A DNA stretch of 64,000 bases from Eubacteriales bacterium (GCA_045595165.1 JAZNZY010000019.1:11884-75883), one strand, 5' to 3'; counted from the stretch's first letter, positions 20,913-40,379 are shown. The notes: generated by a model from the sequence alone, not told the origin. Program-made: numbers and translations.

Positions 20913-20941
20913 GGATTTGTTGCTTTGTCAACATCTTCTTG
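20913..20941 (-). promoter_or_regulatory. Near-consensus sigma-A promoter for the acyl-CoA synthetase/TetR/bioY/trxB strand
   Basis: On the minus strand: TTGACA (20941-20936), 17-nt spacer, TATAGT (20918-20913). Confidence 0.6.
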
Positions 20942-21023
20942 CGAAAGGCAAAAAATAATTATGTGTTAACTTAAACATATTACCATATTCGTCATGTTTT
21001 GTCTATAGTATTTCCCGTTGTGG

Positions 21024-21052
21024 TAAAAATAAAGCCCCCAAAAAAGGGGGAC
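21024..21052 (-). terminator. Probable intrinsic terminator after the lipoprotein gene
   Basis: Minus strand reads CCCCC-TTTTTT-GGGGG followed by CTTTATTTTT. Confidence 0.5.
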
Positions 21053-21058
21053 GTTATT

Positions 21059-21622: not shown

Positions 21623-21689
21623 ATTCTCAACCATCCTTTCGTATATAATACTTTTCAAAACCGGAAAATGTTACATCGCTTTTAAAAAA

Positions 21690-23243
21690 TCAATAAGGCT
21701 GTGTGTTATAGTCCAGCAGAGCAGGGTAGGAATCTTCTATAAAATCGAATTCCACGGTTTTTCCGTCAATATTCCATACCGACGGAGTGTTGTTATAGGT
21801 CCAATCCAAAGGCTCGGCGCTGTTTTGCTGAACCGAATTCACCTTGAATGCCTGCACAAGGTCTTTTTTCATTTCTTCTGTTAAGGCGCTCGGCTGTATG
21901 GAAACGAACAGAGGCGTTCCGCTGTATGCCAGCAGGTAAAGCCACTTTTTGTTTAATGACCAAGGGATGTTTTCTTCCAGTATTCCCACACAGTCCGCAT
22001 CGGCGGAATAAAAGGTGTTGTTCTGGCACATTCTGAACGCCAGCGAGTTTATGCCCAGCGTTCTCGTTCTTGACCAATGTCTGCCGCTGGTATCGTCGCC
22101 TATACGGTTGAGCGCGTGTATTCCCGCGCAAAGATGGGATACGGTATTGCATCCGATCACCACGGCATCCCCCGCCTCTCTTTGTATAAGCAGGTAAAGG
22201 TCTTTTACTATCTCTGCGTTGGTTTTTGTATCGTCGTAAAAGCTCCAATCCCCATCGGAGGTAATCATTCCGTTAAGAGAAAATCCGTATCTGCCGAACA
22301 GATCGAAGGTGGAATAATCGTGCTTTATAAGGGTGTATCCCCAGCTTCGTATTCGGCGAACCGTATCTGCCAGATATTTTTTTACTTCGGGATGGGTGGG
22401 ATCGAGAAAGCGGTTTTCCCATCTGTCTATACATCTTTCGGGATGGTCGGCTTCTTCCTTTATGTCGTGAAGCGGTCTGAACCATATTCCCGCTTTTACG
22501 TCCATTTTCTTGAAGGCATCGGCAATTTCGCCCATATCCCCGTATTTTTCATTGGGGTACCATGGGCCTGCGCAGGAGTTTTGGGACCAGCCGTCGTCAA
22601 TTACCATGTATGGGCGGTTTTGTAACCCCTGTGTAAGGGACGCGATAACTTCGCAGTCCTTTATAATATCTTCTTTGCTGCTTACCCCGTAAGCGTAATA
22701 CCAGTTGTTGCTTCCGTATACCGGTTCTGCAGGCAGAACGGGATTTTCGCACATAAGCGCGCAAAAGCTTTTCGCTGCCTCAAAGGGGGAAACACCTGCG
22801 TATTCGCGGCATACAATTTCGCAAGCTTTAAGCCTTCTTCCGTTTAAGCGCACGCCTTTTCCGCCGTTGCGCAGGTCGATATGGCAGGTAACGCCTTGGG
22901 CATCGTATTGAAAGCATACGAAAGAGTTCGCTCCCGTTTTTACACCGCAACCCGCGGTGCGTTCTCCGCTGTTGGCAATAAAATACCAAGGCATAAAGAC
23001 TTCGCCGTTAAGGGATGCCCAGCACATATCTCCGTAAGCGCGTTCCCATTTATCGCCCATTACACGGGTGTTTTCTCGTGTGGGATAGTTCCAGCGGAGC
23101 AGGACGCGTTTTATCTTTGCAGTGTCCGCGGCAATATATACTGCAAGAGCACCGTTTTCCAAAACGGTTTCCAAAACAGCATCGGTATTTTCTCCTTCGC
23201 AGTATATTTTTATATCATCGGGTATACGAAGTATATTTATCAT
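21690..23243 (-). CDS. Alpha-galactosidase-like glycoside hydrolase (clan GH-D; GH27/GH36-type motifs)
   Basis: 'VIDDGWSQ', 'YTLIKHDYS' (K-x-D nucleophile block) and 'LNRIGDDTSGRHW' (R-I-x-D-D acid/base block) resemble melibiase-type TIM barrels. No signal peptide. Confidence 0.6.
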   Translation of the reverse strand: MINILRIPDDIKIYCEGENTDAVLETVLENGALAVYIAADTAKIKRVLLRWNYPTRENTRVMGDKWERAYGDMCWASLNGEVFMPWYFIANSGERTAGCGVKTGANSFVCFQYDAQGVTCHIDLRNGGKGVRLNGRRLKACEIVCREYAGVSPFEAAKSFCALMCENPVLPAEPVYGSNNWYYAYGVSSKEDIIKDCEVIASLTQGLQNRPYMVIDDGWSQNSCAGPWYPNEKYGDMGEIADAFKKMDVKAGIWFRPLHDIKEEADHPERCIDRWENRFLDPTHPEVKKYLADTVRRIRSWGYTLIKHDYSTFDLFGRYGFSLNGMITSDGDWSFYDDTKTNAEIVKDLYLLIQREAGDAVVIGCNTVSHLCAGIHALNRIGDDTSGRHWSRTRTLGINSLAFRMCQNNTFYSADADCVGILEENIPWSLNKKWLYLLAYSGTPLFVSIQPSALTEEMKKDLVQAFKVNSVQQNSAEPLDWTYNNTPSVWNIDGKTVEFDFIEDSYPALLDYNTQPY

Positions 23244-23260
23244 ATTTCAAAACCTTTCTG

Positions 23261-24487
23261 TCAGTAGAAATAAACTATAAAAAAGGTGTTTTTGTTGGTA
23301 TGGAATGCCCAAATGTAATAATTGCCTTCGGAGTCGGTTTTCAGCAGGTCTTCGTAAAGTATATCGCTCAGAGCGCTCCAATCCACCGCTTGGTTCAAAA
23401 GCATAGTGTGAAATTCGGTTTCACCCGAAAGCATGCCGTTTATAATATCCGCCGACATTTCTTCCAGAGATTCATAGGCTTCTCCCTCGGTATAGTAATA
23501 ATTCTTGTTGCTGTTCTCGGAAATGGGATTATATTCCCACAGTTCAAGCCAATCGTATTCATCACACATATCCGCCCCTGCGTTGAAAAGGCGGTAATTG
23601 GTCTTGTACTCGCTTCCGTAAGAGGCATCGTCAAAGGTAACGTCAACAACATACCATTCGTTATCAAGACAAATGGTGTTGATCATATGCCCTTCTCCGT
23701 TAAAGTCGGTAACACACATTCTGCCAACCTTAAACCCTGCAATAGTCGCCAGCAGGTAAAAAGAATCGGTATATCCCTGGCAGTTGGCGTATTTATCCAA
23801 CAGCCCGCCCACGGCTGTAAGGTGTCTTGGCGGATCGGAAGGATCGGGCACATCAACGGAGGGGTTGTAATAGGTTATGGTTTCGGCAAGATAATCGTGA
23901 AGATATATTTCCAGCTCGTAATCCCCGTTGGTCTCCGCTTTCGCGGCTTCCACAATTTTTACAGCCTCGTTTAACACCTGTTTTTCATCGTCGTTTAGGG
24001 ATGACGTGTCTTCGCAGAAATATGCATCCGCTATCCGATCTCCGGGAAATTCGGTTATCTCAAGGGTATAATGATTTTCCGTGTATTCGTATTTTATGTA
24101 TAATGCGGCAAGCATACGGGCGATAAGCTGCGCGTCGAATTCCTCGTCGCCCAGATATTCAAAGCGTATCTCCAGCTCATCCCGTTCTTTTTTTTCGTTA
24201 AGATAATCTCTTAATTCAACAAGACTGTATATTGTTCTCTCTTCCTTCGGTGCCTCGTCTTCCTCGGACATCTCTTCTGCGGATATTTCGTCTTTTTCGG
24301 GAACGGATATATCATCTTCGTTTATTGTGGGAAAGCTTTCTTCAATGCCCAAATCATCGCTGTTTTCCGATGTAATGCCCGCATCTGAAGAAGACGCTTC
24401 GGGAAGGGGGAACGGAAAAAAACAAGATGAAGTAAGCAAAGCGGTTATAACGATAAAAGCGGTGATGATTACTATGCGTTTTTTCAT
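23261..24487 (-). CDS. Lipoprotein with acidic linker and transglutaminase-like core
   Basis: Lipobox 'LLTSSC'. Cys-His-Asp core 'ANCQGYTDSF...GEGHMINT...YVVDVTFDD'. Same overall design as the 7671-9014 protein. Confidence 0.7.
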   Translation of the reverse strand: MKKRIVIITAFIVITALLTSSCFFPFPLPEASSSDAGITSENSDDLGIEESFPTINEDDISVPEKDEISAEEMSEEDEAPKEERTIYSLVELRDYLNEKKERDELEIRFEYLGDEEFDAQLIARMLAALYIKYEYTENHYTLEITEFPGDRIADAYFCEDTSSLNDDEKQVLNEAVKIVEAAKAETNGDYELEIYLHDYLAETITYYNPSVDVPDPSDPPRHLTAVGGLLDKYANCQGYTDSFYLLATIAGFKVGRMCVTDFNGEGHMINTICLDNEWYVVDVTFDDASYGSEYKTNYRLFNAGADMCDEYDWLELWEYNPISENSNKNYYYTEGEAYESLEEMSADIINGMLSGETEFHTMLLNQAVDWSALSDILYEDLLKTDSEGNYYIWAFHTNKNTFFIVYFY

Positions 24488-24611
24488 AATTTTCTCCCTC
24501 CGTTTTTTATTGGCGCCGTACTCTTATCAGAACATTATACAGCAATTATTTGCCCGTGTCAATAAAGCAAATATTCTCTGTGCATCAGCTTTTGCTGAAG
24601 CTCACAACGCA

Positions 24612-24640
24612 TTGACAGCATGGGAAAAATAAAGTATAAT
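24612..24640 (+). promoter_or_regulatory. Consensus sigma-A promoter for tag
   Basis: TTGACA (24612-24617), 17-nt spacer, TATAAT (24635-24640). Confidence 0.65.
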
Positions 24641-24719
24641 TCAAAAAACGGAGAAGCTTTTTGCAACTGTGAAATCGTTGCGTTGATTTTTTTACTGTAT
24701 CTTTTTTGGAGGAAGCGTT

Positions 24720-25274
24720 ATGGCAGATATCAAGAGATGCTCGTGGTGCAATTTGAAAAATCCTTTGTACGTGGAATACCACGATACCGAGTGGTGCGTG
24801 CCGAATTTTGATGAAAAGCATTTATACGAAATGCTCATTCTGGAATCCTTTCAGGCGGGTCTTTCCTGGGAGTGTGTTTTGAACAAACGGGAAGCGTTCA
24901 GAAATGCCTACGATAATTTCGATATCGCTTCCGTCGCTTCTTATGATGACGACAAGATAAACGAGCTGATGCAAAACAAGGGTATCATAAGAAACAGACT
25001 TAAAATATCCGCCAGCATTCAGAACAGTAAGGTTTTTGAGAAAATATCAGATGAATACGGCTCTTTTTACGCATATTTGTTAACCTTTACAAAGGGTGCT
25101 ACCCTTTACGAAACGGATAAAACCACAAACCTTTTATCGGATGCCATCTCAAAGGATCTGCAAAAAAGGGGAATGAAATTCGTAGGCTCGGTCATCATCT
25201 ATTCCTACCTGCAAGCCATAGGAATTATACATTCCCACGATACGGATTGTTACCTGCACAAAAACAGCGAATAA
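24720..25274 (+). CDS. tag: DNA-3-methyladenine glycosylase I
   Basis: 'RCSWC...NPLYVEYHDTEWCVP..DEKHLYEMLILESFQAGLSWECVLNKREAFR' is the canonical Tag sequence, including the zinc-binding Cys/His residues. Confidence 0.9.
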   Translation: MADIKRCSWCNLKNPLYVEYHDTEWCVPNFDEKHLYEMLILESFQAGLSWECVLNKREAFRNAYDNFDIASVASYDDDKINELMQNKGIIRNRLKISASIQNSKVFEKISDEYGSFYAYLLTFTKGATLYETDKTTNLLSDAISKDLQKRGMKFVGSVIIYSYLQAIGIIHSHDTDCYLHKNSE

Positions 25275-25416: not shown

Positions 25417-25583
25417 GCGACGCAACCGAATATACACCGCTATGAATTACGTAAGTGTGAGTTTTTATTTTTTGATAAAAACGCATGCTCTTTTCGGCAT
25501 ACTTACGTAAGGTAGCGGATTTGCGTCGCGGCAAATTGGGCAGTGCGGTTTTTTGTGCGTTGCTGTTTGCAACGCATTTTTTT
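25417..25583 (+). ncRNA. Candidate structured small RNA or leader, unknown class
   Basis: Bounded by the promoter above and a clean terminator (stem 25556-25563 / 25569-25576, then T7). Nested helices: GCGACGCAA (25418-26) / TTGCGTCGC (25521-29); CCGCTA (25437-42) / TAGCGG (25513-18); TTACGTAAGT (25447-56) / ACTTACGTAA (25501-10); apical GTTTTTAT (25461-68) / ATAAAAAC (25475-82). No convincing ORF inside. Confidence 0.35.
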
Positions 25584-25727: not shown

Positions 25728-25756
25728 TTGACTTGGCGTTGCTTTTTTGCTATATT
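25728..25756 (+). promoter_or_regulatory. Sigma-A type promoter for the large surface locus
   Basis: TTGACT (25728-25733), 17-nt spacer, TATATT (25751-25756), about 135 nt upstream of the 2053-aa ORF. Confidence 0.5.
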
Positions 25757-25822: not shown

Positions 25823-25893
25823 CAAGCAGAACTGCGATGTTCGGATAACGAAATAGAAAATAAAAAATATAAAATTTTTCAGGAGGCGAAAAA

Positions 25894-28800
25894 ATGGGTA
25901 AACATTCCAATTTTTTCAAACGTGCCCAAACGTGGGTTCTTACCGTTGCGATACTGTTGACGGTATTCCAACCTATTTTGGGCTTCGTGGTTGTTGCGGA
26001 AGATAAAACTCCCGTAGACATCACTGTCGGTGAGCTTGTTGTTAAAAATTATGACCAGCTTACCGATTCCGAAAAGGCCCTTATCGAGTCGGGCGTATTG
26101 GTGGGAGATGAAACTCTTACATATACGAAGCCTGATGCGCTTAATGGCGATGAAGTTATATCTGTAAACACAGATAACAAGACTGTGACCGTAAAGGCTT
26201 ACAAAGACGGCGGCTACACCTGGCAGCCCGTTTCCGTTAAGCTTGTAAATAACGGCGCAGTACTCGAAGAGCTTACGCTTGTAGCCGGCAAAGCCACCTA
26301 CGAATACGACGGAAACGCTTTCGCCGTTGTAGTTGACTATAAGCTTGAAGTGGAAGTTGATGAAGCTGTTCAGAACAACCTTCTCACCGCTCCCGCAAAG
26401 CTTTCTGACGCAGTTGCAAAGCTCGACGCTATTGCAGGCGTTGACTTGAGCGCAATTGTTATGGCGCTTCCCGAGCTCAGAGAATTTGCAACCGAAGACG
26501 GTATGGAAGTTTATAAGATCAAAGATTCGCCTGCATATCTCGATTTCGACGATGCTGCTAAACCTGCTACAAATGCACTGATTAGTCAGCTCGATGCAAA
26601 CGGCGGCAAACTTGATCTTCAGCTTATGGTAGAAGCCTACGAAGCTGCTGACCACAAGGTTGCATACGCTATTGCAAACGGCGAAGCCATAGTTGAAAAA
26701 GCGATTGAAACCTATGAATATCTTGCAATCGTCCTTGATGGTTTCGATTACGATGGAGAGATCGAAAACAAAGATTCTCTCTTGGGTAAGATAGACGCTA
26801 TCAATTCGGTTCTTGATATCTTGATTTCCAATCATCTCGTTTCTGCGGATGTTCGCACTAAAGTTGAACTGGCTCAAAAGTCTGTAAACACTGCAATTTC
26901 CGTATTTGAAACTGCTGTTAACGCACTTGAGGCTCCTTGCGCTTCCGGTTGGAAGAGCATTGATGGTATCGTTAAGGCCGGTCTTACCGATGTTCAGCTT
27001 GAGGCTCTTGACGGATACGTTGCTTCTATTGCAATTCCCACCACCGGTATTGCTGTAAAGAATCCTCTTTACGTTGAAACTGTTTCCGTACAGCACAATA
27101 TGAGCATGTACAACGTTACCGTTAACGTAGAGCTTGAGCTTACCGGCGACAATAACGTTGTCGGCAAGGTTGATACCGTTACAACCACCGTTACTCTCGC
27201 AGAGGGTGCAACTACCGCTGAAATCCTTGCTGCAGTTGAAGCAAGCGGCGTTGTTGACAGCGCTCTCACTAAGTGGAACGATAAATACGTAGACGGCAAG
27301 TTTGACGTGGTCAAGTCTGCGCTTCCCGCAGTTCTTGAAGCGGATACCGTTTACACTATCACTTATACTCCCAAAACCTTTAACGTAGATTACGCCGGCA
27401 ACAATGTTGCATATCCTTACGGTGCTACCGTAGTGCTTGAAAAGCACGCTGATGCAACAAAGGCTTACGATTACAAGGTTAACGGAACACCTTACGCACA
27501 GGGCGAATACTTCGTTGTAGAAGGTGATACCGTTATTACTCGTGAAGAGGGCAAGAGCTACACCGCTTCTACCCTGTTCAATATTATCGCAAACAACTAC
27601 CTCAGCGGCAAGGGTGCTGCAATCCTTACCTCCGGCGCGTTGTTCGGCGACGTTGCCGTGAACGTTCGTTATCCCGGCGATGAAGACGAGCTTGTTTCTC
27701 TTGACGGCAAGAAGCTCACCGCTAAGAAATATGCTGCAAGCTATGAGGGCCTGTCTTGGACCGCATACAGCTATACTCTTACCAAAAACGAAGTTGAGAG
27801 CGAACCCGTTCTCTTCAATGGCGCTGAAACCGTTGAGATCAGCGGAAGCTTCGATTACGTTACCGTAATCTACCGCTTGAACTTCACTAACTTCAGCGAA
27901 GATACAGTTCTCGGCTTTGCTAATCTTCCCCACGTTCTTGCAGAAGAGTCTGCCGCACAGAAAGCGGCTCTTGAAAGAATCGCCGCAAAGAACGGAACTC
28001 TCGCACAGCTGAAAAAAGCAGTTCTTTCGGTAGCAGCTGAATCCATCAATGATTCCACGCTTAACGCCGATCTCGCTAAGGACGCTGCGCTTAAAGCTTC
28101 TTTTACTACTGCTTTCAACGGCATTATAAACGAATGCTACTCCGGCACTACTATGAAGCTCAGCCTTCTGATCAACGATTATCTCGCTTCCGGCGATAAG
28201 ATCGCTCATTACTATGCAAACCACGAAGAGATCCGCGGTGAGATCGCAGTGCTTGCAGGCTACCTTTCCACCATGATTGCAGAAGAAGCAGGCTTGACCA
28301 AGGATGATAAGAAGGCGGCTCTTGAGATTCTTCTTACCGATCTTGGTACAGGGGTGATTACCGCTGAAGATATTAAGAAATACGTGGACAACTTCGAATC
28401 TATCGAAGAGATCATGAATTCCGTGCTTGACGATCTCAGCGTTCCCAATGCCGCTATCGATCTTGAAAGCCCCAACCTTGGTAAGCTCACTGCTGCCCTC
28501 GACGGCGCAACTGTTGACGCTGTAAATTCCTACAAGGGACTTTACCTTACCAGCGTTGGCTTTACCGAAACTTCCGATGAACAGACTCTTATCACCGTAA
28601 ATGTAAATGTAAACGGCACTACCGTTTCCGTTACCTCCGCACTTATGGACAACGTTGATACGGTTTCTGCAGGCGTCATCGGCGATCTTATCGAAGCTAT
28701 CAATGCAAAGATACCCGGTGATTCCGCTTATTACAACAGCAATTACAACGAAGTAGTTGCAGCGCTCAACGCACTTGTTGGCGAGCAGGCAGGCTCTGTA

Positions 28801-31800
28801 ACCAAGAATTACACCATCAACTACACCTATAAGGAATTCACTGTTTCCGTTCCCGAAACCGAAGACCAGACTGTAACTGCAGTTGATAAGGTTATCAACC
28901 TTCCCGCCAGCGGAAATGCCGGCTTCAAGTATGTATACAGCGTTAACGGAATCGAAGTTCCTACCGGCAACTATACTCTTACCGATGCTGATTTCGCTTC
29001 CCTCGTTGCAGGCAATCTTAAGATCACCTTGAAAAAGGTTGACGTTCTCAGACAGAACCTTATCGATTACGTTGACAGCCTGAATGCTAACTCCGGTGAT
29101 ACCGTGAAGTTTGCTCTTGTTGAAAACAACGGCGAATATTCTATCGTACTTAAGATCGACGGCCTCCAGCCCAACGCTCTTATGAGCGCTGTTATGGGCA
29201 CCGCGCAGGGTATGGTTACCGGTGATTACGCGTACGTTGGACTTGACGGCAAGGCGTTCATTGACGGCAAGATCTATCTCCAGTCTGTGCTGGATGCATT
29301 TATGAACAGCGGCTTTGGCGATAAGACCATCGTTGACGTTATGGATGCTAACGGTAATATTAATAATATGAAGCTTTCCGGCACCGTTATTTCCAATACT
29401 CCCGTTGCTCCTTACGGCGGCGAGCTGTTGGCAACCACTATGCAGCTGGGTAACACCGCTTCCGATGCTATTGACGTAGACTTCTATATTACTCTTGGAT
29501 CCGTTTCTTCTGAAATGGTTCAGGTGAGAAACGTTCTGGCAGGAAAAGTTTCCAATTACTTCGGCTTGGTATGCGATAACGGCTATGCAAATATGTCCGT
29601 TAACCTTCCCGAAAAGGCTTACGAAGCATTCCTCGCAATGCTCCTCGTAACCGAGAAGATCGATATAGCAAACATCAACGCTGTTAACAGCGAAATCGCT
29701 ATTTCCTTCTTCCACGATCTGCTTATGCCCACTCTTAAGACTCCCGGCGTAACAGTTCAGACCTTCGATAACACTCTTTCCAAGTTCGGCTTTGATCTGG
29801 ATCTCTCTTCTCAGAAGGGCGCAGAGCGTCTGTATGATTATATGGTAGGTTTCTACACCAACGCTGATTATACTTACGATCCCGAAACCGGCTATATGGT
29901 AAACAATATATCTATTTCCGCTGCTATCGACGCTATGAATCTTGGCAGCCTCGGAAATATGATCGCTGAAAAAGACACCGGTCTTGACATCGCACTTTCT
30001 CTTACTATCGAAGACCTCGGCCACGAATACGATGCTCTCTATGTTGATATAACCGCAGACGGCATTGCAAACAAAGCAGGTCTTTCCACCGATATCGTTG
30101 CTAAGGCAGATGATATTGAAGGTACCGCAGTAATCGTATTGCTCGATAACGTTAACGGTCCTCTCAACCTTGGCACCACCACTCTTCTTAACCTCAACGG
30201 CTTTACCGTTGACGGCGACCTTAACTGTGAAGGAAAGGTAATCGTAGTTGATACCCGTGTCGCTGACGGCGTGAACGGCGGCGTGACCGGCGAAGTAACC
30301 GGCAACGCAATCATTCTCGGCGGTAAGTATGCAGATGATGTATCCGCATTTACCAAGAACGGTTACGTTCAGAACTCCGAAGGCGTAGTAAACAACAAGT
30401 TCTATGATATAGTTGAAGATTCCGAAGGAAATGTTATCGTAGAGCTTAACGCAGGTGTAATTCACACCGATAGTATTCCCAGCATCCCCGGTCTTGCAAT
30501 AGACCTCGCTTGCGATCTCCTCTTCAACGGATACAGCAGCAACTACCTTGAAATTGCAGGCAATACCGTTTATGATATCTCCTTTGAGGATCTCGTAGGT
30601 ATTTATGCAAGCACCGATCGTGTAAACAAAGTAGTTGATGAAGTTGTAAACATCGTTGACAGTGCAGAGCTTTCCGCACTTATCAACCTTGTTCTTGACG
30701 ACGTATTCAATTTCACTGCTATAAGCGAAGCTATCAAGGCAGACGAACCCGTACTTTCCTACGAAATGGTAACCAAGCCTTGGAGCATCCAGTTCTCTCA
30801 TGTTTCTTCCGAGGATTACATTACCGCAGGCATCGTATCCGGTGAACCTGCCATAGTAAGAGAACTTAGCATCACTCTTGTTGGCGAGGAAGCTGATAAG
30901 GCTTATTTTGCAGATCTCTTTGCAGAACTCGGCAGAACCGTTTCTGCTGATATCAACGTAAACATCAACCACGGTCTTGACGGAAAAGAACTTTATGCTG
31001 AGGTTTCCGCAGACGCAAACGTTTATGTTGACTATACCAACCCCAATTATGCTGTAATGTTCAGCGTAATGATCGCTGACGGTATCGGCGCTCCCGCAAA
31101 CACCGCACTTGTTGAGGGTATCAAGGAATTCTATGCAACCAACGGCGATATCTCCGATCTCGCATTTGCATTCAATTCTCTTACCGTTAATCAGGTAGTA
31201 ACCGCGCTTAAGAATCTTACTCTGAACGATGATTTCGACGCTATGGTTGCAAGACTCGGTCTTGACGGTATCGTTCCTTCCAAGGTAGCAGAGCTCGAAG
31301 ATCTTTACGATCGTATCGGCAAAGTTGCTGCAGCTGCAGTTCGCAAGGCTGATATCACCGGCGGCAGCCGCAAGTTGGGTACCTTCCTTGATGCAGACGG
31401 CGCATACGGCATGAGCAGATCCAACTTTGCAAGATATCTGGAGAGAAACCTCTTCAAGGGTTACTCCGCATCCGCTTCTGTAGAAGTTACCGATTTCTAC
31501 GTAGGCGTTAAGCTCTTTGCAGATGACGTGCTCAACCTCCTGCCCGAATTTGTAGACGGCACCGGTACTCCCGATCTCACCTTCAGCGATAAACTCGTTG
31601 GCTACCAGATCGATTTCGATGGCAACTACATCATAATCGATACTCATGCAAGCGGCATTACCGTTGATGAGCTCAAGGCACTTATTAACCTCTACGCTGA
31701 CAATGCCGATTATATCGACATTGCTCTCGGCGATAACCTTTCCGGCGATTCTCTCGTACCTAACGGCACAAAGCTTCTCGCTACCGCAGGCAACGAATTC

Positions 31801-32055
31801 ACCGATGAAGTTGATACGGTTGAATACACCGTTATCGTACTCGGCGATATTAACTGCAACGGTACCGTTGAAGTAGGTGACGCTGTACTTATCACCCGTC
31901 ATCTCGTTTACGACCAGGAACTCAGCGCAGTTCAGAAGCTTGCTGCTGATACCAGCAACAACGGAAGAATTGACGTTGGTGACGCTGTAAGAATCACTCG
32001 TAAGAAGCTTTACTGGGATGAATACAAGTCCTTGCTTGAAGAAGTTGAAGACTAA
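25894..32055 (+). CDS. Giant secreted surface protein (2053 aa) with C-terminal type-I dockerin
   Basis: AGGAGG RBS 7 nt upstream. Signal peptide (...ILGFVVVAEDK). C-terminus carries duplicated Ca-binding dockerin segments 'DINCNGTVEVGDAVLITRHL' and 'DTSNNGRIDVGDAVRITRKKL'. The body is A/V/D/N/T-rich with recurring 'YTI(T/N)YT.K.F.V' beta modules. Confidence 0.85.
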   Translation: MGKHSNFFKRAQTWVLTVAILLTVFQPILGFVVVAEDKTPVDITVGELVVKNYDQLTDSEKALIESGVLVGDETLTYTKPDALNGDEVISVNTDNKTVTVKAYKDGGYTWQPVSVKLVNNGAVLEELTLVAGKATYEYDGNAFAVVVDYKLEVEVDEAVQNNLLTAPAKLSDAVAKLDAIAGVDLSAIVMALPELREFATEDGMEVYKIKDSPAYLDFDDAAKPATNALISQLDANGGKLDLQLMVEAYEAADHKVAYAIANGEAIVEKAIETYEYLAIVLDGFDYDGEIENKDSLLGKIDAINSVLDILISNHLVSADVRTKVELAQKSVNTAISVFETAVNALEAPCASGWKSIDGIVKAGLTDVQLEALDGYVASIAIPTTGIAVKNPLYVETVSVQHNMSMYNVTVNVELELTGDNNVVGKVDTVTTTVTLAEGATTAEILAAVEASGVVDSALTKWNDKYVDGKFDVVKSALPAVLEADTVYTITYTPKTFNVDYAGNNVAYPYGATVVLEKHADATKAYDYKVNGTPYAQGEYFVVEGDTVITREEGKSYTASTLFNIIANNYLSGKGAAILTSGALFGDVAVNVRYPGDEDELVSLDGKKLTAKKYAASYEGLSWTAYSYTLTKNEVESEPVLFNGAETVEISGSFDYVTVIYRLNFTNFSEDTVLGFANLPHVLAEESAAQKAALERIAAKNGTLAQLKKAVLSVAAESINDSTLNADLAKDAALKASFTTAFNGIINECYSGTTMKLSLLINDYLASGDKIAHYYANHEEIRGEIAVLAGYLSTMIAEEAGLTKDDKKAALEILLTDLGTGVITAEDIKKYVDNFESIEEIMNSVLDDLSVPNAAIDLESPNLGKLTAALDGATVDAVNSYKGLYLTSVGFTETSDEQTLITVNVNVNGTTVSVTSALMDNVDTVSAGVIGDLIEAINAKIPGDSAYYNSNYNEVVAALNALVGEQAGSVTKNYTINYTYKEFTVSVPETEDQTVTAVDKVINLPASGNAGFKYVYSVNGIEVPTGNYTLTDADFASLVAGNLKITLKKVDVLRQNLIDYVDSLNANSGDTVKFALVENNGEYSIVLKIDGLQPNALMSAVMGTAQGMVTGDYAYVGLDGKAFIDGKIYLQSVLDAFMNSGFGDKTIVDVMDANGNINNMKLSGTVISNTPVAPYGGELLATTMQLGNTASDAIDVDFYITLGSVSSEMVQVRNVLAGKVSNYFGLVCDNGYANMSVNLPEKAYEAFLAMLLVTEKIDIANINAVNSEIAISFFHDLLMPTLKTPGVTVQTFDNTLSKFGFDLDLSSQKGAERLYDYMVGFYTNADYTYDPETGYMVNNISISAAIDAMNLGSLGNMIAEKDTGLDIALSLTIEDLGHEYDALYVDITADGIANKAGLSTDIVAKADDIEGTAVIVLLDNVNGPLNLGTTTLLNLNGFTVDGDLNCEGKVIVVDTRVADGVNGGVTGEVTGNAIILGGKYADDVSAFTKNGYVQNSEGVVNNKFYDIVEDSEGNVIVELNAGVIHTDSIPSIPGLAIDLACDLLFNGYSSNYLEIAGNTVYDISFEDLVGIYASTDRVNKVVDEVVNIVDSAELSALINLVLDDVFNFTAISEAIKADEPVLSYEMVTKPWSIQFSHVSSEDYITAGIVSGEPAIVRELSITLVGEEADKAYFADLFAELGRTVSADINVNINHGLDGKELYAEVSADANVYVDYTNPNYAVMFSVMIADGIGAPANTALVEGIKEFYATNGDISDLAFAFNSLTVNQVVTALKNLTLNDDFDAMVARLGLDGIVPSKVAELEDLYDRIGKVAAAAVRKADITGGSRKLGTFLDADGAYGMSRSNFARYLERNLFKGYSASASVEVTDFYVGVKLFADDVLNLLPEFVDGTGTPDLTFSDKLVGYQIDFDGNYIIIDTHASGITVDELKALINLYADNADYIDIALGDNLSGDSLVPNGTKLLATAGNEFTDEVDTVEYTVIVLGDINCNGTVEVGDAVLITRHLVYDQELSAVQKLAADTSNNGRIDVGDAVRITRKKLYWDEYKSLLEEVED

Positions 32056-32069
32056 GGAGGTGCGGAATA

Positions 32070-33476
32070 ATGAAATTTACTAAGAATTTATTTGCTTTAT
32101 TGCTTACCGCAGTTCTCGTTTTCACTATGTCTATTCCCGCCTTTGCTGCTGTTGCCACTGATGTGGTAACAGCGGAGGCAGGCGAAACTGTTTCCCTTAC
32201 CTATACTTATACCGACGTAGCCGGTATATACGGCGCATTCACGCTTTCCAATCCCGATATGGTTTCCTCTTTCAAGATAACCATTCCCGATCTCGGCTTG
32301 GAAGAAGTTGAATACAACGAAGCGGACGGAAGATTTTCTTACTTCCTGTCTGATAATATGACCTTTGATATCGTTCTCGAAGTAGTAGTTTCTTCTACCG
32401 CTAAAGCAGGCGATAAGTGTGAAGTTACCTTCAAGCACGAAGCAGTTTCCGAAGATGGAGTGCTTCCCGAAGAAGAAAACTTTACCGTAGATACCATTAC
32501 CATAGTTATTGAAGATGCTCCCGTAGTTGAACTTGACTACAGCAAGCTGGAAGCTCTTATCGACGAAGCAAACGCTCTCGTAGAAGATGAGTATACCGAA
32601 GAATCCTGGAAGGCAATGGCAGACGTTCTTGCGGATGCAACTGCGCTCGTAGGCAACGCTCAGACCCAGCAGGAGATCGACGATATGGCAGCAGCTCTTC
32701 AGGCAGCTATCGACGCTCTCGTAAAGAAGACTCCCGTAGTTGAACTTGATTACAGCAAGCTGGAAGCTCTTATCGATGAAGCAAACGCTCTCGTAGAAGA
32801 CGAGTATACCGAAGAGTCCTGGAAGGCAATGAGCGAAGTTCTGGCAGGTGCAGAAGCACTTATCGGCAACGCGCAGACCCAGAAAGAAATCGACGATATG
32901 GTAGCAGCACTTCAGGCAGCTATAGATGCTCTCGTAAAGAAGACTCCCGTAGTTGAACTTGATTACAGCAAGCTGGAAGCTCTTATCGACGAAGCAAACG
33001 CTCTCGTAGAAGACGAGTATACCGAAGAATCCTGGAAGGCAATGAGCGAAGTTCTGGCAGGTGCAGAAGCACTTATCGGCAACGCTCAGACCCAGAAAGA
33101 AATCGACGATATGGTAGCGGCACTTCAGGCAGCTATCGATGCTCTCGTAAAGAAGACTCCCGTAGTTGAACTTGACTACAGCAAGCTGGAAGCTCTTATC
33201 GCAAGTATAGACGAACTCAACAAGGAAAACTACACCGAAGAATCCTGGGCAGCAATGGAAGCAGTTCTTGCAGAAGCACGTGAACTTCTGAAGAACAAGA
33301 ACGCTCAGAGCCAGGATGAGATCGACGCGAAGGTAAAATCACTTCAGGCAGCTGTTGATGCTCTCGTAGGTAAATACGGTGATAACTCCACCATTATTTA
33401 CGCACTTGTTGCAATGATCATTGCTGCAGTTGCTACTGTTGCAGTTCTTAAGACCAGAAAGAAAGCTCGCAATTGA
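32070..33476 (+). CDS. Membrane-anchored cohesin-like / FIVAR-repeat protein (468 aa)
   Basis: AAGGAGG RBS and signal peptide (...IPAFAAVA). An N-terminal ~130-aa beta module has a cohesin-like pattern ('AGETVSLTYTYTDVAGIYGAFTLSNPDMV', 'AKAGDKCEVTF'). Four 71-aa FIVAR-type helical repeats ('LDYSKLEALIDEANAL..DEYTEESWKAM...QTQ.EIDDM.AALQAAIDALV'). C-terminal TM span plus KTRKKARN. Confidence 0.8.
   Translation: MKFTKNLFALLLTAVLVFTMSIPAFAAVATDVVTAEAGETVSLTYTYTDVAGIYGAFTLSNPDMVSSFKITIPDLGLEEVEYNEADGRFSYFLSDNMTFDIVLEVVVSSTAKAGDKCEVTFKHEAVSEDGVLPEEENFTVDTITIVIEDAPVVELDYSKLEALIDEANALVEDEYTEESWKAMADVLADATALVGNAQTQQEIDDMAAALQAAIDALVKKTPVVELDYSKLEALIDEANALVEDEYTEESWKAMSEVLAGAEALIGNAQTQKEIDDMVAALQAAIDALVKKTPVVELDYSKLEALIDEANALVEDEYTEESWKAMSEVLAGAEALIGNAQTQKEIDDMVAALQAAIDALVKKTPVVELDYSKLEALIASIDELNKENYTEESWAAMEAVLAEARELLKNKNAQSQDEIDAKVKSLQAAVDALVGKYGDNSTIIYALVAMIIAAVATVAVLKTRKKARN
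32518..33369 (+). repeat. 213-bp in-frame tandem repeat x4 (FIVAR modules)
   Basis: Units start at 32518, 32731, 32944 and 33157. Units 2 and 3 encode identical peptides and differ at five positions, all synonymous third-codon positions (GAT/GAC, GAG/GAA, GCG/GCT, GCA/GCG, ATA/ATC). Confidence 0.9.
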
Positions 33477-33525
33477 TCTTTCTTCTAAACCGCGCACCGC
33501 AAACATTTAAAAAACGGTGACAAGT

Positions 33526-33561
33526 TCCGTACACTGCCGTTAATTTTCGGCAGTGTACGGA
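33526..33561 (+). other. Perfect 14-bp intercistronic stem-loop without U-tract
   Basis: TCCGTACACTGCCG (33526-39) / CGGCAGTGTACGGA (33548-61), loop TTAATTTT, between the two cohesin-like genes. Confidence 0.6.
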
Positions 33562-33604
33562 CCAACTGAATACAAAAACAATTTTTGAACAGGATGTTAT
33601 ACAA

Positions 33605-35281
33605 ATGAAATTATTAAAACGAATATTGGTTTTGTTCCTCACCGCTTTGCTTGCTGTGTGCACTGTTGTCCCCGCATTTGCGGCGGCTCCTTCTACCGCT
33701 ACCGGCAGAGTAGGAGAAACCGTTAATATCACCTTTACGTTTGATGCTGTCGTAGGTATCGAAGGCGAAGTTATTTTGTCGAATCCCGATCTTTTTACGT
33801 CCGCAAGCCTTTCCGCAACCGGTGCCATGGTTGGCGGATATTCCGATGGATATTTTATGTATTATTCACCTACCGGTGATTACATGGCATCTACGTACAC
33901 GCTTATCCTCAATGTTTCCGAAAACGCAAAGCCCGGAGATACTTGTACCGTAACTTTTGAATATACGCTCAGCGACCTGAACGGTATTATGGGCGAGGTT
34001 AAGCAGGACGTTGTTCAGGTTACTATCAAATCCGCACCCGATCTTAATTTTGATGAACTTAACGAGCAGATCCGCATTGCGGAATCTCTCAAATCTACAG
34101 ATTACACTTCCGCAAGCTGGAGCGCTCTCCAGACTGCATTGAAAAACGCAAAGAATGCTCTTAAGAGCACAACACAGGAGGGAATAGATTCCGCTACAGC
34201 TGCACTTAAAACCGCTATTGCGAATCTTAAACCCGTTACATCTCTCAACGTCGATTATTCGGAGCTGGTAAAGCAGATAAAGATTGCCGAAGCTCTCAAT
34301 TCAAAGAATTATACTGCAGCGTCTTGGGCTAATCTTACAAAGGCGCTAAACACCGCAAAAGCGGCGCTCAAGAGCGAAAGCCAGACAGAAGTAAATTCTG
34401 CGGCAACTGCGCTCAAGAACGCAATCGCAAACCTCGTGGCGGTTTCCAACGGCATTGATTATTCCGAGCTCAACAAGCAGATCGCTATTGCTGAAGGCTT
34501 GAAAAAGGCTGATTACACCGCAGATTCCTGGGCGGCGCTTGAGAGTGCCCTCGTTAACGCGATCGCCGCAAGAGGAAGCAATAATCAGGCGACTGTAGAT
34601 ACTGCAGCCAACGCACTCAAAAACGCTATTTCGGCGCTGGTACGTGTTAACAACGCCGTTGATTACACTGAACTTGAAAAACAGATCGCCATAGCCGAAG
34701 GGCTTGACGAATCATTATATACAGACGCAAGCTGGGAAAACCTGCTTGAGAAGCTGGAAGCGGCAAAGCTTGCCGCAACCGGCAAGGATCAGGCTGAGGT
34801 AGATGCAGCTACCGCGGCTTTGAAAACAGCTATTGCCGACCTCGTGCGCATGGATTATCAGGCGCTTCACGATATTATTGAGGCAATAAAGAAGCACGCC
34901 GAGGATGAGAATCTTTCCGGCCTCTGGCTTAAGATGCACGAGCTTCTTGAGAAAGCACCTGCTATGTTTGAAAGCGGCGATCAGGCAGAGGTTGACGCTT
35001 ACGTAGCACAGCTTTCCGCACTCCTTGCAGAAATAATAAGAGAGATCGAATCCCTTAAGGATGCAAACCAGGTGATCGTGGGTGATCCCCAGATCACGTA
35101 TCCTACCGATCCTTATTGTAATATAGGTATGCACCGTGTATGGCCCATACTGTTCTGGGTAAGCTTCGCGCTTAATCTGTGCACAGTAGCCGTCGTAGTG
35201 TATATATATATAAATAAAAGGAAGAAAACTACGGACGATACTCCGCTTGTTGATTACGATATAGCGGACGACGCCGAGTAA
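33605..35281 (+). CDS. Membrane-anchored cohesin-like / FIVAR-repeat protein (558 aa), paralog of 32070-33476
   Basis: Signal peptide (...VPAFAAAP). N-terminal module 'VGETVNITFTFDAVVGIEGEVILSNPDLF ... AKPGDTCTVTF'. Four clear FIVAR repeats plus one divergent ('DYSEL..QI.IAE.L...DYT..SW..L..AL...'). C-terminal TM span (VWPILFWVSFALNLCTVAVVVYIYI) followed by NKRKK. Confidence 0.8.
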   Translation: MKLLKRILVLFLTALLAVCTVVPAFAAAPSTATGRVGETVNITFTFDAVVGIEGEVILSNPDLFTSASLSATGAMVGGYSDGYFMYYSPTGDYMASTYTLILNVSENAKPGDTCTVTFEYTLSDLNGIMGEVKQDVVQVTIKSAPDLNFDELNEQIRIAESLKSTDYTSASWSALQTALKNAKNALKSTTQEGIDSATAALKTAIANLKPVTSLNVDYSELVKQIKIAEALNSKNYTAASWANLTKALNTAKAALKSESQTEVNSAATALKNAIANLVAVSNGIDYSELNKQIAIAEGLKKADYTADSWAALESALVNAIAARGSNNQATVDTAANALKNAISALVRVNNAVDYTELEKQIAIAEGLDESLYTDASWENLLEKLEAAKLAATGKDQAEVDAATAALKTAIADLVRMDYQALHDIIEAIKKHAEDENLSGLWLKMHELLEKAPAMFESGDQAEVDAYVAQLSALLAEIIREIESLKDANQVIVGDPQITYPTDPYCNIGMHRVWPILFWVSFALNLCTVAVVVYIYINKRKKTTDDTPLVDYDIADDAE

Positions 35282-35373
35282 ATATACGAGTAAACATAAC
35301 AAAACCGACCTGATCTTTTGTAAAAAATCGATCAGGTATACGGCTATAGAGGAATATAAAGGAAGAAATTGCT

Positions 35374-36840
35374 TTGGAAGGACAAAACTGGAAACGAAAA
35401 GAATATGAAACCTGGGACGAAGCGTTCAGAGGTCTCGCTCCGGTTGTAAGACAGCAATCCGTAAGGGTGGCGGCTTACACGCAGGCTTTGTTTGTGCAGG
35501 CTGTTAAACTTCGCTTTGGCTCCAATACCGCCGCAGGAAAAGAACGAATGAAGGGACAATATGCGGACCTGATGTACAAATGCGGTTTGTACCATCAGCT
35601 TGGAAAAGCGTTGGTCCCCCCCGAATATCAAATTCTGCAAAACGATTTTACCGAAGAGGAATCTGCCGTGTATAAAAAATATACGACAGACGGCCGCGTG
35701 CTCGTTGCCGGATTGCAGGAAAAGGGTGCCCGTGCGAAGAACAAGCGCAAAGGCGAATTTGCCGAGCTTCCCACCAAGAATATCCCTTGGCTTATGCTCC
35801 GCGAATGCTGTGAGCAGCATATGGAGCGGTGGGACGGCAGCGGTTTCCCCGCAGGAAGGCTGGGAAGCGATACCAGCGTAGTCGCTCAGATAGTCGGCAT
35901 AGCAAAAGAGCTTGACAGGATCTCTTCGGAAACGCGTTCTGAAACCCCCTTTGAAATAGCTTATGAAACGCTGATAGCAGGCGCCGGCACGGCTTGGTCT
36001 ACCGAGCTTGTGGAGGTGCTCAAATCCGCCAAGGAGAGCTGTTACGCGGTTTATAATAAATACGTAGCATACACCCGCGCTTTGCCCAAAACAATACCTC
36101 TCGTTGAGCGCAGAGAGGACCGTGTAATGGGACTCAAGTACCGCCCGATGGTTTCGGACGGGGAGGGAACTGTGCTTATGTACGAAGCGAACCCTTGGTT
36201 TGGCGGCGTGGCTGACAGACCGAGCGAAACAGAAACCGCTTCGGAACTGCGCGAGTTGTTTAAGCGCACTAATTTGAGCGTGGAATTGGCATGGTACTTC
36301 TTATATGAGGCGACAGATACCATTCTGCGTATCAACAACTGCAATCTGTGTCTTGAGGGAGTTTTGCTCGAGATGCTTCCGGAATTTTACCTCTCCGGCA
36401 CACAGCTTCAAAACTTCAATAAGCTTTTCGAAGATCAGCCTATTGAAAAAGAGCAGCTGTTGCTTACCGTTCCCGAAGAGATAATCCGAACTTGCAGTAA
36501 AACAAATCTTGAGATTATCGAGCGTTATCTCCGCAACGGCATTTGCCTTGTTCTTGATGATTACCGGCCCGATGATGATCTCCCGCCGGAGCGTGTTATC
36601 GAGCTTGGATTTACAAAGGTTCGTCTTGCGTCCGAACTTTACAGAAAGAACGAGGGCGTTATCGCCATAAGCGAGCTTCGCAGCAAAGGACTTACCGTTT
36701 TAGGTAAAAATGCCGATACGCCCGAGGTTATCTCTTGGCTTGTTAATCACGGTGCATTGTGCTTTTCCGGCACGATGACGGGAATCCCCGTTAATGACGA
36801 TGAGCTTATTCTTGATTCCCTGGCAAGGGAGCAAGCGTAA
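35374..36840 (+). CDS. Cytoplasmic degenerate HD-GYP + degenerate EAL-like two-domain protein (c-di-GMP-related)
   Basis: TTG start after AAAGGAAG. HD-GYP-type block 'QHMERWDGSGFPAGRLG', but the upstream 'HD..GK' reads 'YHQLGK'. The C-terminal half follows EAL-domain order with substituted catalytic positions ('YRPMV', 'EAN' for EAL, 'LDDYR' for DDFG, 'KVR' for K-x-D, 'SGTMTGIPV' for QGY...P). Confidence 0.65.
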   Translation: MEGQNWKRKEYETWDEAFRGLAPVVRQQSVRVAAYTQALFVQAVKLRFGSNTAAGKERMKGQYADLMYKCGLYHQLGKALVPPEYQILQNDFTEEESAVYKKYTTDGRVLVAGLQEKGARAKNKRKGEFAELPTKNIPWLMLRECCEQHMERWDGSGFPAGRLGSDTSVVAQIVGIAKELDRISSETRSETPFEIAYETLIAGAGTAWSTELVEVLKSAKESCYAVYNKYVAYTRALPKTIPLVERREDRVMGLKYRPMVSDGEGTVLMYEANPWFGGVADRPSETETASELRELFKRTNLSVELAWYFLYEATDTILRINNCNLCLEGVLLEMLPEFYLSGTQLQNFNKLFEDQPIEKEQLLLTVPEEIIRTCSKTNLEIIERYLRNGICLVLDDYRPDDDLPPERVIELGFTKVRLASELYRKNEGVIAISELRSKGLTVLGKNADTPEVISWLVNHGALCFSGTMTGIPVNDDELILDSLAREQA

Positions 36841-36858
36841 ACTCGTTGGTGAGGCACT

Positions 36859-37884
36859 ATGGCAGAGAAAAAGAAGCCTAAAGAGCAAAAGTTAACGGGA
36901 GCGGAGAAAAAGCAGCGCGGTCTGTTCAAAAAGAAACGCGCCGGTATCGTCCTGACCAAGGACGAGGTAAAGCAGATCAAAGCAGGCAGGAAGAAGCTCC
37001 GCCGCGATATGCGCAAGGCGGGAATAAAGAGCAAGAAGGAGTTCGAGCTCACCGCTTCCTCAATGGGTCTGTATTTTGATAAGCGAAAGCCACTTGTACT
37101 TTTCTGGTGGTGGTTACGCGGCAAAGGGATATGGTTCTTGCTTGCTGCAGGAGCACTTGCACTGGCTGCGCTTTACGGAATATCCTATATCACCGAGCTG
37201 AGAGGACATTTTACCATAAGCATGTCGGGCGATATGTTCCGTGAGGGATTCACTATATCGGAAACGGTAGGGTTTGAGAATCCCACTTCCCATTTGTTTG
37301 CTACCCCTGCGGAAGGAGTACCGTGTATATCTATTTATGATATACCCGAAAATGTCGATGATATCGACGGCGCTCATAATGCGAATTATTTCGCATATAC
37401 GTTTTACCTTCGTAACGAGGGTGAAACCGCCCAGGATATAGATTGGGTTCTCCGCCTTAATTCGGAAAGCTTGTCTGTATCAGATGCGGCTTGGGCGATG
37501 ATCTTTCTTGACGGCAAGATGCAATTTTACGCCAAGGCGGACGAGGACGGAAATGTCCAGTGCCTTCCCGCGGCGGACGATAATACCAGAGGATATACAA
37601 AAGCCCCTCTTTATGACAAAGCTCTTTATCCCGACGAACAGTACGAGATTATAAAGAGTATGGGTGAAATGACCTTCTGGCGCGTCAAGCCAAAACCGTT
37701 TATCTCCGAGCTTTCTATAGATTCCGGCAGAATAACGGATATCCAGCCTTTTGAGGTCCACAAATTCACCGTGGTCATCTGGCTTGAGGGGGACGACCCC
37801 CAGTGCACCAATGATCTTATAGGCGGTCATTTGGGATTGGAATTTTATATGGAAATGGTGGAAGAGAATGACACCGCCGAATAA
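36859..37884 (+). CDS. Signal-anchored TasA-like-family protein with long K/R-rich cytoplasmic N-tail (341 aa)
   Basis: About 85 basic residues, then a TM span (IWFLLAAGALALAALYGISYI), then an extracytoplasmic domain ending 'FTVVIWLEGDDPQCTNDLIGGHLGLEFYM'. This motif is shared with the 40534 and 46516 proteins. Confidence 0.6.
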   Translation: MAEKKKPKEQKLTGAEKKQRGLFKKKRAGIVLTKDEVKQIKAGRKKLRRDMRKAGIKSKKEFELTASSMGLYFDKRKPLVLFWWWLRGKGIWFLLAAGALALAALYGISYITELRGHFTISMSGDMFREGFTISETVGFENPTSHLFATPAEGVPCISIYDIPENVDDIDGAHNANYFAYTFYLRNEGETAQDIDWVLRLNSESLSVSDAAWAMIFLDGKMQFYAKADEDGNVQCLPAADDNTRGYTKAPLYDKALYPDEQYEIIKSMGEMTFWRVKPKPFISELSIDSGRITDIQPFEVHKFTVVIWLEGDDPQCTNDLIGGHLGLEFYMEMVEENDTAE

Positions 37885-38030
37885 CCCCGGTTTTTTCGGT
37901 CAGTACCGCGACCTGGCCGTTTAAATATCATATATATTCGCAAAGGCGTGAATATCGATAAAGGGTATTTGCGCTCCGACCAAAAAAACAAAAAAACAAA
38001 AAATAAAAACAAAAGAAAGAAGGCAAAAAA

Positions 38031-40340: not shown

Positions 40341-40379
40341 TCGTCCCCTTAATTACTTAATACTTTAAGTACTTACTTT

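Follow-up and report, generated by a model that had tools for sequence, protein, structure and literature searches.

A giant dockerin protein encoded beside two putative membrane-anchored cohesin-like proteins in a Eubacteriales genome and in related loci of gut and rumen Clostridia

Introduction

In the sca cluster of Ruminococcus flavefaciens the gene cttA lies directly upstream of scaE, a precedent for the adjacency of genes for a dockerin protein and a cohesin protein, and in the toxin/glycosidase complexes of Clostridium perfringens FIVAR–dockerin modules are found, FIVAR there lying in the same proteins as the dockerin. Here we analyse a stretch of 64,000 nucleotides (nt) from Eubacteriales bacterium (GCA_045595165.1, JAZNZY010000019.1:11884–75883; the whole of this 64-kb stretch is called the window), in which positions 25,894 to 35,281 encode a giant dockerin protein and, next to it, two proteins, P2 and P3, with a cohesin-like module at the N-terminus and a predicted transmembrane (TM) helix at the C-terminus. 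The closest known system is ScaE of R. flavefaciens, a type III cohesin protein whose partners are the X-dockerins of CttA, ScaB and ScaH (PDB 4IU2/4IU3, 2ZF9, 8AJY). ScaE is linked to the cell wall by an LPXTG motif and sortase, and sortase and S-layer homology (SLH) domains are the anchoring routes reviewed for cellulosomes (PMC12484212); for rumen dockerin proteins, non-carbohydrate roles have been reported (PMC6487960). The genes that follow the unit recall in part the SipW–TasA and SipW–BsaA matrix-fibre operons (for literature context, PMC7395162; bioRxiv 10.1101/2024.11.04.621531). In the partial library open to us, neither the combination of a cohesin–FIVAR–TM anchor with a giant dockerin protein that is no enzyme nor the locus around it was found described.

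We suggest that the cohesin–dockerin pair is a cell-surface display device for the giant protein, a reading that homology and structure prediction make probable. It is well supported by the conserved adjacency of the two kinds of gene (45/52 related loci), by a natural variant in which a FIVAR–TM anchor is fused to the giant and the cohesin-like gene is missing, and by relatives whose giants bear SLH domains or anchors of their own. Taken with the remote homology of the N-terminal modules to cohesins, these observations also favour the proposal of an earlier note on this DNA that the giant is displayed on membrane-anchored FIVAR stalks.

Results and Discussion

Organization of the three-gene unit

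The unit consists of three open reading frames (ORFs) on the same strand (+), at the positions that the earlier note had given, and the P2 gene starts 14 nt past the stop codon of the giant's gene. Its features are as follows.

25894..32055, +: giant secreted cargo protein, 2053 amino acids (aa) (ORF, translation, hydrophobic N-terminus, 50 homologues)
31840..32001, +: dockerin module, giant aa 1983–2036 (PF00404, loop motifs, matches to PDB dockerins)
32070..33476, +: P2 anchor protein, 468 aa, with signal peptide, cohesin-like module, four FIVAR units, TM helix and basic tail KTRKKARN (ORF, Pfam, hydropathy)
32148..32522, +: cohesin-like module of P2, aa 27–151 (family profile, AlphaFold 2, Foldseek)
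32518..33201, +: 213-nt tandem repeat (3.2 copies, 93% matches) coding for three near-identical P2 FIVAR units (repeat scan, FIVAR Pfam matches)
33378..33461, +: C-terminal TM helix of P2, aa ~437–464, with KYGDNS just before it (hydropathy, homologue C-termini)
33605..35281, +: P3 anchor protein, 558 aa, with signal peptide, cohesin-like module, FIVAR-type helical repeats, conserved juxtamembrane/TM region and acidic cytoplasmic tail
33680..34039, +: cohesin-like module of P3, aa 26–145 (paralogue of the P2 module; same hidden Markov model (HMM) family)
35102..35278, +: conserved C-terminal unit of P3, aa ~500–558, reading P....CN...H..WP.LFW.S...N, then the TM helix, KRKK and DDTPLVDYDIADDAE (invariant alignment columns)

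The giant protein and its dockerin

The giant begins with a hydrophobic signal segment (aa ~1–36 by hydropathy) and ends, as the earlier note had it, in a canonical duplicated dockerin: Pfam Dockerin_1 (PF00404, type I-like) matches aa 1983–2036 with 26.2 bits against a cut-off of 22.9, and a distance of 34 residues separates its Ca-binding F-hand loops, DINCNGTVEVGD and DTSNNGRIDVGD. Each loop has 12 residues, with D or N at positions 1, 3, 5 and 12, and forms with the helix behind it a segment of ~22 residues. No second loop pair of this kind occurs in the six-frame translation of the window. Searched against the PDB with phmmer, the giant's dockerin matched solved dockerins and no other sequences, and the profile of the giant family likewise found dockerins only (E=8e-9), that of ScaH being among the matches.

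Beyond the dockerin, neither Pfam nor NCBIfam families were found in the giant. AlphaFold 2 modelled aa 36–1200 as helical bundles and small beta domains strung together, confident per domain (predicted local distance difference test (pLDDT) 84.6, predicted template-modelling score (pTM) 0.51), and a Foldseek search of the PDB with this 1165-aa model gave nothing below E=0.03. In all, 50 homologues were recovered. The gene is also unusual in its codons: TTA, CTA and TCA are used not once in 2053 codons, whereas twelve neighbouring genes use them 75 times in 7439 codons (1.0%; at this rate P is about 9e-10), which suggests strong translational selection and hints at high expression. A 2007-aa antisense ORF (window 25879–31902, −) was rejected as a gene; it has no family match and is a by-product of the codon bias, existing because the giant gene lacks these three codons. 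The cargo, which has no recognizable enzyme domain, is most likely an adhesin or a coat-type structural protein; this is the most economical reading, and both the SLH-bearing homologues described below and the avoidance of TTA, CTA and TCA agree with it.

The dockerin gene accompanies the cohesin-like gene in related loci

Related loci were collected by scanning one genome per species with a full-length alignment of P3-type proteins (through the conserved tail), which gave 60 loci. Every one of them is from uncultured Clostridia of the gut or rumen, the greater part being Oscillospiraceae, Acutalibacteraceae and Faecousia, and the closest (95% identity) belongs to a metagenome-assembled genome from water-buffalo caecum. 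Adjacency was scored where a dockerin-ended ORF, with the duplicated dockerin at its very C-terminus, ended within 400 nt (typically under 120 nt) of the cohesin-like gene. By this objective pattern the cohesin-like gene is directly preceded, on its own strand, by a dockerin-ended ORF in 45 of the 52 evaluable loci (47 by eye), and 29 of the 31 upstream ORFs that are complete encode 1900–3158 aa.

Most homologues of the giant carry the dockerin at the C-terminus; in the others this place is taken by something else. Two (P0169 and P0177, the latter at L064 313–6651) have SLH domains there, five (P0176, P0180, P0184, P0191 and P0192) have TM or xTG-like anchors of their own, and one (P0165, L061 10001–16717) has FIVAR repeats, a TM helix and a 'TPLVD' tail without any dockerin, that is, the anchor of P3 fused onto the giant. 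The loci with variant giants are arranged as follows.

L061/L062 (P0165): FIVAR–TM–tail fused to the giant; no cohesin-like gene in ~20 kb, the giant's gene leading straight into the HD/EAL gene
L063, L065, L066 and L067: own TM or xTG-like anchor on the giant; no cohesin-like gene nearby
L068: own-anchor giant, then a 1280-aa paralogue with dockerin; a cohesin-like gene with TM helix and 'MVDYDI' tail directly after the paralogue
L064: SLH giant; P3-type cohesin-like gene still present

Because homologues end in a dockerin, in SLH domains, in their own TM or xTG-like anchor or in a fused FIVAR–TM anchor, the giant's C-terminus is, on sequence comparison, an interchangeable anchoring slot. With the exception of L064, the loci appear to behave as a docking model predicts.

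The residues by which dockerins recognize cohesins vary from locus to locus. Positions 10–11 of the loop read V-G in both repeats of the window's giant, and across the loci they read VG, SG, NN, ID, VA, IS, SN and others, while in 30 of 45 loci the two repeats of a dockerin carry the same pair. As far as the loop residues indicate, such a pattern is that of symmetric dockerins with dual binding, whose partners are specific to the lineage. Separately, we observed that positions 10–11 are identical between the two repeats in 27/33 loci with one cohesin-like gene and in 3/12 loci with two (Fisher P=7.5e-4, not corrected for shared ancestry; L001–L059). Asymmetric dockerins might, judging from their loops, address two anchor types separately.

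The N-terminal modules as a divergent cohesin subfamily

P2 and P3 each start with a cleavable-looking signal peptide (…PAFA↓A) followed by a beta-rich module of ~120 aa, the modules of P2 and P3 being paralogous to each other (34% identity, E=1e-17). Both contain the motifs GETV.(L/I) and AK(A/P)GD.C.VTF, on which the earlier note had based its description of a beta module with the cohesin pattern, and which prove to be landmarks conserved throughout a family that numbers at least 142 proteins. An ordinary homologue search with the module alignments returned one 82-aa fragment only; the family came from an exhaustive HMMER search of 1.84 billion representatives, which gave 142 proteins at E<1e-3. 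In these representatives (at least 142 at 50% identity) the module follows directly on the signal peptide in nearly all cases, and 75 of the 121 members that were scanned carry FIVAR. One scanned member, P0059 (223 aa), joins the cohesin-like module to a C-terminal Pfam dockerin (E=1.7e-12), an adaptor-scaffoldin architecture seen in no other of the 121.

Searched singly with phmmer against the PDB, the modules gave nothing significant. A profile of 65 modules, by contrast with these single sequences, found cohesins: ScaE of R. flavefaciens was best (E=3.4e-5/4.3e-5, and 0.0039), followed further down by ScaC of R. flavefaciens (E=0.008) and ScaC of Acetivibrio cellulolyticus (E=0.016), the sole non-cohesins in this range being two de novo designed immunoglobulin (Ig) proteins matched over ~20 residues (E=0.004–0.005). 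In the ScaE alignment the landmarks aGeTVtV and dAKaGD, which are the two motifs of the earlier note, fall on the corresponding strands. Further, AlphaFold 2 with the family alignment folded the P2 module as an all-beta domain (pLDDT 91.3, pTM 0.84), in which DSSP counts seven strand elements; as two of these have the length of double strands, the number comes to about nine, which would fit the nine-stranded jelly-roll of cohesins, and the six best Foldseek matches of this model in the PDB are all cohesins from cohesin–dockerin complexes (5n5p, 5lxv, 4uyp; E=4e-5 to 1.5e-4, query template-modelling score (TMq) 0.52–0.67). We conclude that the N-terminal modules are, by profile and by predicted structure, a divergent cohesin subfamily, within the fold and the superfamily and outside the Pfam family as now modelled.

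Several observations count against this conclusion and against the docking that we build on it. Pfam Cohesin (PF00963) does not match P2 or P3 at E≤1, NCBIfam does not recognize the modules either, and not one of the 121 scanned family members matches Pfam Cohesin at E≤0.01; comparison of the modules with cohesin folds, which the earlier note had proposed, thus came out positive with the family profile and with AlphaFold 2 and Foldseek, and negative with the Pfam model. An hhalign comparison with one Pfam-positive cohesin gave E=9e-4 with a probability of just 23%, and in Foldseek non-cohesin beta-sandwiches (the N-domain of GH123, FimC-type chaperones) come close behind the cohesins (E=1.5e-4 against 4e-5). 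All the relatives are metagenome-assembled genomes, and L064 keeps its cohesin-like gene without a neighbouring dockerin, one exception that is unexplained. The Pfam negative, the near-equal beta-sandwiches and L064, together with a weak Big_5 match for P3 (E=0.082), would suit an alternative in which the modules are Ig-like or adhesin tip domains that do not bind dockerins, P2 and P3 being stalked adhesins and the giant's dockerin binding a cohesin encoded elsewhere in the genome or nothing at all. We think this unlikely, given that the sequence-profile matches in the PDB are cohesins but for the two short designed-Ig matches, that adjacency to dockerin-ended genes is strictly conserved, that the cohesin-like gene is missing exactly where the giant has its own FIVAR–TM or own TM anchor, and that the window holds no further copy of the cohesin-like module beyond P2 and P3 and no other dockerin.

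Predicted FIVAR stalks and C-terminal membrane helices of P2 and P3

Behind the module both proteins carry FIVAR (PF07554) in four stretches (P2, 83 bits, E=2.4e-23; P3, 56.4 bits, E=4.9e-15). Each has two strongly hydrophobic segments, the N-terminal signal peptide and a C-terminal one (P2 ~437–464, P3 ~512–537), and basic residues come after the latter in both. The C-terminal 80 aa of P2 and of P3 contain no LPXTG-like motif, and Pfam and NCBIfam showed no SLH domain in P2, P3 or the giant. The architecture that the earlier note described, FIVAR spacers and a C-terminal TM segment without LPXTG or SLH, is thus what we find, and with it stands the claim that the anchoring differs from that of scaffoldins held by sortase or SLH domains, the C-terminal helix probably taking the place of either.

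For P2 we have weighed covalent linkage to the wall by sortase through a divergent sorting signal, that is, the classical mechanism with a different motif. The C-terminus of P2 is built in three parts like a sorting signal (short motif, hydrophobic stretch, basic tail), several homologues read PQTGD, PATGD or PSTGD, a PxTG(D/E)-like sortase-type motif, at the aligned place, and Gram_pos_anchor matches P2 with 15.1 bits, under the cut-off of 20 and over the hydrophobic and basic part only. P2 itself, however, reads KYGDNS there, without the Thr after which sortases cleave, many P2-type homologues lack any sorting motif at this place, P3 has no sorting-signal layout, and a TLxTC motif scan of the window, a weak test, showed no sortase-like ORF. 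We regard a sortase linkage as improbable; a plain TM anchor is the better reading of the P2 sequence, because of KYGDNS and of the many homologues without the motif, although within the family a link to the cell wall may occur. Close homologues of P2 differ in length (325 aa for P0002 and 405 aa for the ORF of L001, against 468 aa here), and stalk length therefore varies between strains.

As regards P3, the C-terminal TM stop-transfer anchor of the earlier note holds for the TM helix, which both proteins have, and falls short for the rest: P3 is more than a simple stop-transfer, its TM region and tail being nearly invariant. In an alignment of 18 P3-type proteins the juxtamembrane/TM residues P, CN, H, W, LF, S and N and the tail D.TPLVDYDI.DD are invariant or nearly so, although the proteins are just 35–50% identical overall; the near-invariant part covers the TM region and a 21-aa tail (KKKK..D.TPLVDYDI.DD), which in the window's P3 is the cytoplasmic peptide KRKKTTDDTPLVDYDIADDAE. 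About 47 of 128 family representatives have this tail, which is also found in the genome loci, and within the loci it was found on the cohesin-like anchor family only. Its conservation, with that of the TM region, implies a conserved partner in the membrane or the cytoplasm.

A conserved locus of ~30 kb around the pair

The earlier note took the two kinds of protein for a self-contained docking pair; this did not hold, for the pair heads a conserved locus of ~30 kb. Fourteen genes in the same direction follow it (window 35374–57971, +), most of which are kept in 30–56 of the 60 loci; this applies to the genes from 35374 to 48559 and 51192–56123, while 48528, 50498 and 56193 each match one locus, as expected, since the flanks end 10 kb downstream. 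The features of this region and of the upstream border are listed here.

25555–25577: terminator-like hairpin at the end of the preceding region (consensus scan)
25728..25756, +: promoter-like site upstream of the giant gene (consensus scan; weak, the number of sites in the region not being above that in shuffles)
35374..36840, +: HD-GYP-like and EAL-like cytoplasmic protein (Pfam HD_5, E=9.4e-12; EAL under cut-off)
36859, 38031, 40534, 46516, 50498 and 51192, +: secreted or membrane proteins without Pfam family
41578, 42101 and 47813, +: SipW/archaeal-type signal peptidase I paralogues (TIGR02228; 63.5, 83.4 and 96.7 bits against a cut-off of 51.85)
43023, +: TM and AAA_5 ATPase (Pfam)
44636, +: charged coiled-coil protein (translation)
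48528, +: beta-helix protein
56193, +: BspA-type leucine-rich repeat protein

The HD-GYP/EAL-like gene comes after the P3-type gene in 56/60 loci. The best solved relative of its product is PA4781 (4r8z, E=2.7e-11), and its HD-GYP-like metal ligands are partly replaced (HD by HQ, HHE by HME), with LYHQLGK where the enzyme has LLHDIGK, and QHMERWDGSGFP where it has SHHERWDGRGFP; to judge from these residues, its role may be that of a receptor for cyclic dinucleotides and not of an enzyme. Five of the products (38031, 40534, 46516, 48528 and 51192) have N-termini with a hydrophobic segment that ends in (S/T)(Y/F)(A/T)W(F/T/L), reminiscent of TasA-class SipW-dependent signal peptides, and the C-termini of 36859, 40534, 46516, 38031 and 51192 share IWLEGxDxxCTN or VYLDGxxxTN…LNLQF. 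Neither Peptidase_M73 (TasA/camelysin) nor the SipW-cognate signal model (TIGR04088), nor any other model of Pfam or NCBIfam, matches the secreted neighbours at E≤5, or their N-terminal fragments at E≤10; homologues of these neighbours in L061 give weak Peptidase_M73 matches. By their sequences, the genes of 35374–57971 look like an undescribed surface-structure locus.

This setting bears on whether docking is lasting. The conserved locus around the pair also encodes large secreted proteins, an AAA_5 ATPase and the three peptidases of SipW type, and the invariant TM region and tail of P3 suggest contact with other machinery, so that P2 and P3 could be platforms for assembly or export, chaperones that hold the giant transiently and hand it to a structure made of the downstream SipW-dependent proteins. 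We consider such a hand-over doubtful, since relatives swap the dockerin for permanent anchors (SLH domains, own TM helix, FIVAR–TM fusion), which argues for stable retention.

On the other side of the unit, the neighbours at 24720–25274 and 19167–24487 encode a housekeeping-type methyladenine glycosylase, a transglutaminase-like protein and an AMP-binding enzyme. We place the left edge of the locus at 25.7 kb because these genes are unrelated to it and not conserved with it. The earlier note had excluded any glycoside hydrolase, and in agreement we found no glycoside hydrolase family, by Pfam and NCBIfam, among the flanking ORFs scanned (19170–25274 and 35374–57971). A phage origin was considered and rejected, as megablast of window 31000–36000 against a phage collection gave no match.

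A model for display of the giant protein

The domain identities, the topology signals, the conserved adjacency and the natural anchor variants are drawn directly from the data, and from them the following sequence of events can be proposed. The 2053-aa giant would be exported through its Sec signal peptide, and its C-terminal Ca2+-type duplicated dockerin would dock onto the one cohesin at the N-terminus of P3 and, probably, onto that of P2 as well. As type I membrane proteins, P2 and P3 would expose the cohesin as a membrane-distal tip once the signal peptide is cleaved; four to five FIVAR three-helix units would form the stalk through the wall, and the C-terminal helix would retain both proteins in the membrane. 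The giant would then project outwards with its conserved N-terminal domain at the far end. In this scheme we infer from the sequences that dockerin and cohesin bind, that binding depends on Ca2+, which of the two cohesins is used, and that the stalk spans the wall.

It is conceivable, though in our view a long shot, that an undescribed apparatus of the cell surface, widespread among uncultured Oscillospiraceae of the gut, is attached through this pair and comprises SipW-processed TasA-like subunits, the AAA ATPase, the coiled-coil protein and the giant, and that the P3 tail D.TPLVDYDI.DD is read by the degenerate HD-GYP/EAL protein, which would tie the display or release of the giant to signalling by cyclic dinucleotides. 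If true, such a mechanism would amount to a counterpart of LapD-type inside-out control in a Gram-positive setting, with no homology between the two.

The features brought together here are a divergent subfamily of cohesins that goes undetected by the standard Pfam model, its position on a FIVAR stalk with a membrane helix, and its pairing with one giant non-enzymatic protein. Dozens of uncultured Clostridia from gut and rumen have this pairing of genes, which for that reason is most likely a means, other than a cellulosome, of fixing a very large protein to the cell surface. It offers a testable handle on surface decoration in organisms that are abundant but uncultured; the locus-specific recognition residues of the dockerins could yield new orthogonal cohesin–dockerin pairs for protein engineering; and it draws attention to a conserved locus of ~30 kb made up of almost entirely unannotated secreted proteins.

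Comparison with known systems

The likeness to LapA–LapD–LapG of Pseudomonas is one of analogy only: a giant surface protein with a dedicated anchor is encoded alongside a protein with a degenerate cyclic-di-GMP-type domain, whereas no component is homologous, the envelope here is Gram-positive and the coupling to signalling is hypothetical. With the SipW–TasA operon of Bacillus subtilis and the SipW–BsaA operon of C. perfringens the locus shares SipW/archaeal-type peptidase genes, three in number here, and secreted proteins with an aromatic motif after an N-terminal hydrophobic segment. The window's secreted proteins, however, match neither Peptidase_M73 nor the SipW-cognate model and are much larger (340–1643 aa), and the known SipW operons contain no dockerin or cohesin, AAA ATPase or HD-GYP/EAL genes.

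Non-cellulosomal cohesin–dockerin pairs, as in C. perfringens and non-fibrolytic rumen bacteria, resemble the present one in being used outside plant-fibre degradation. There the partners are enzymes or toxins and FIVAR stands beside the dockerin, whereas here FIVAR forms the stalk of the cohesin-like protein, which has a TM anchor with a conserved cytoplasmic tail and belongs to a SipW-containing locus. The type II proteins SdbA, OlpB and Orf2p of Acetivibrio (Clostridium) thermocellum likewise use cohesin–dockerin docking for surface attachment and not for enzyme assembly, and some homologues of the giant (P0169, P0177) use SLH domains directly, as SLH scaffoldins do. In contrast to SdbA, OlpB and Orf2p, P2 and P3 have no SLH domains, their cohesin family is missed by PF00963, and the cargo is one non-enzymatic giant and not a scaffoldin.

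ScaE comes nearest, ahead of the SLH-anchored scaffoldins and the non-cellulosomal pairs. Unlike ScaE, P2 and P3 have a C-terminal TM helix and a FIVAR stalk in place of LPXTG; unlike the partners of ScaE, the cargo is a protein of 2053 aa without carbohydrate-binding module or enzyme; no cellulosome genes lie nearby; and the giant's dockerin has two canonical Ca loops where type III dockerins are less symmetric (PMC12484212). The systems nevertheless have features in common: the ScaE cohesin is the best profile match of the module family, the ScaH dockerin is among the matches of the giant's dockerin, and P2 and P3, like ScaE, would be single-cohesin proteins dedicated to retaining large dockerin-bearing proteins at the cell surface.

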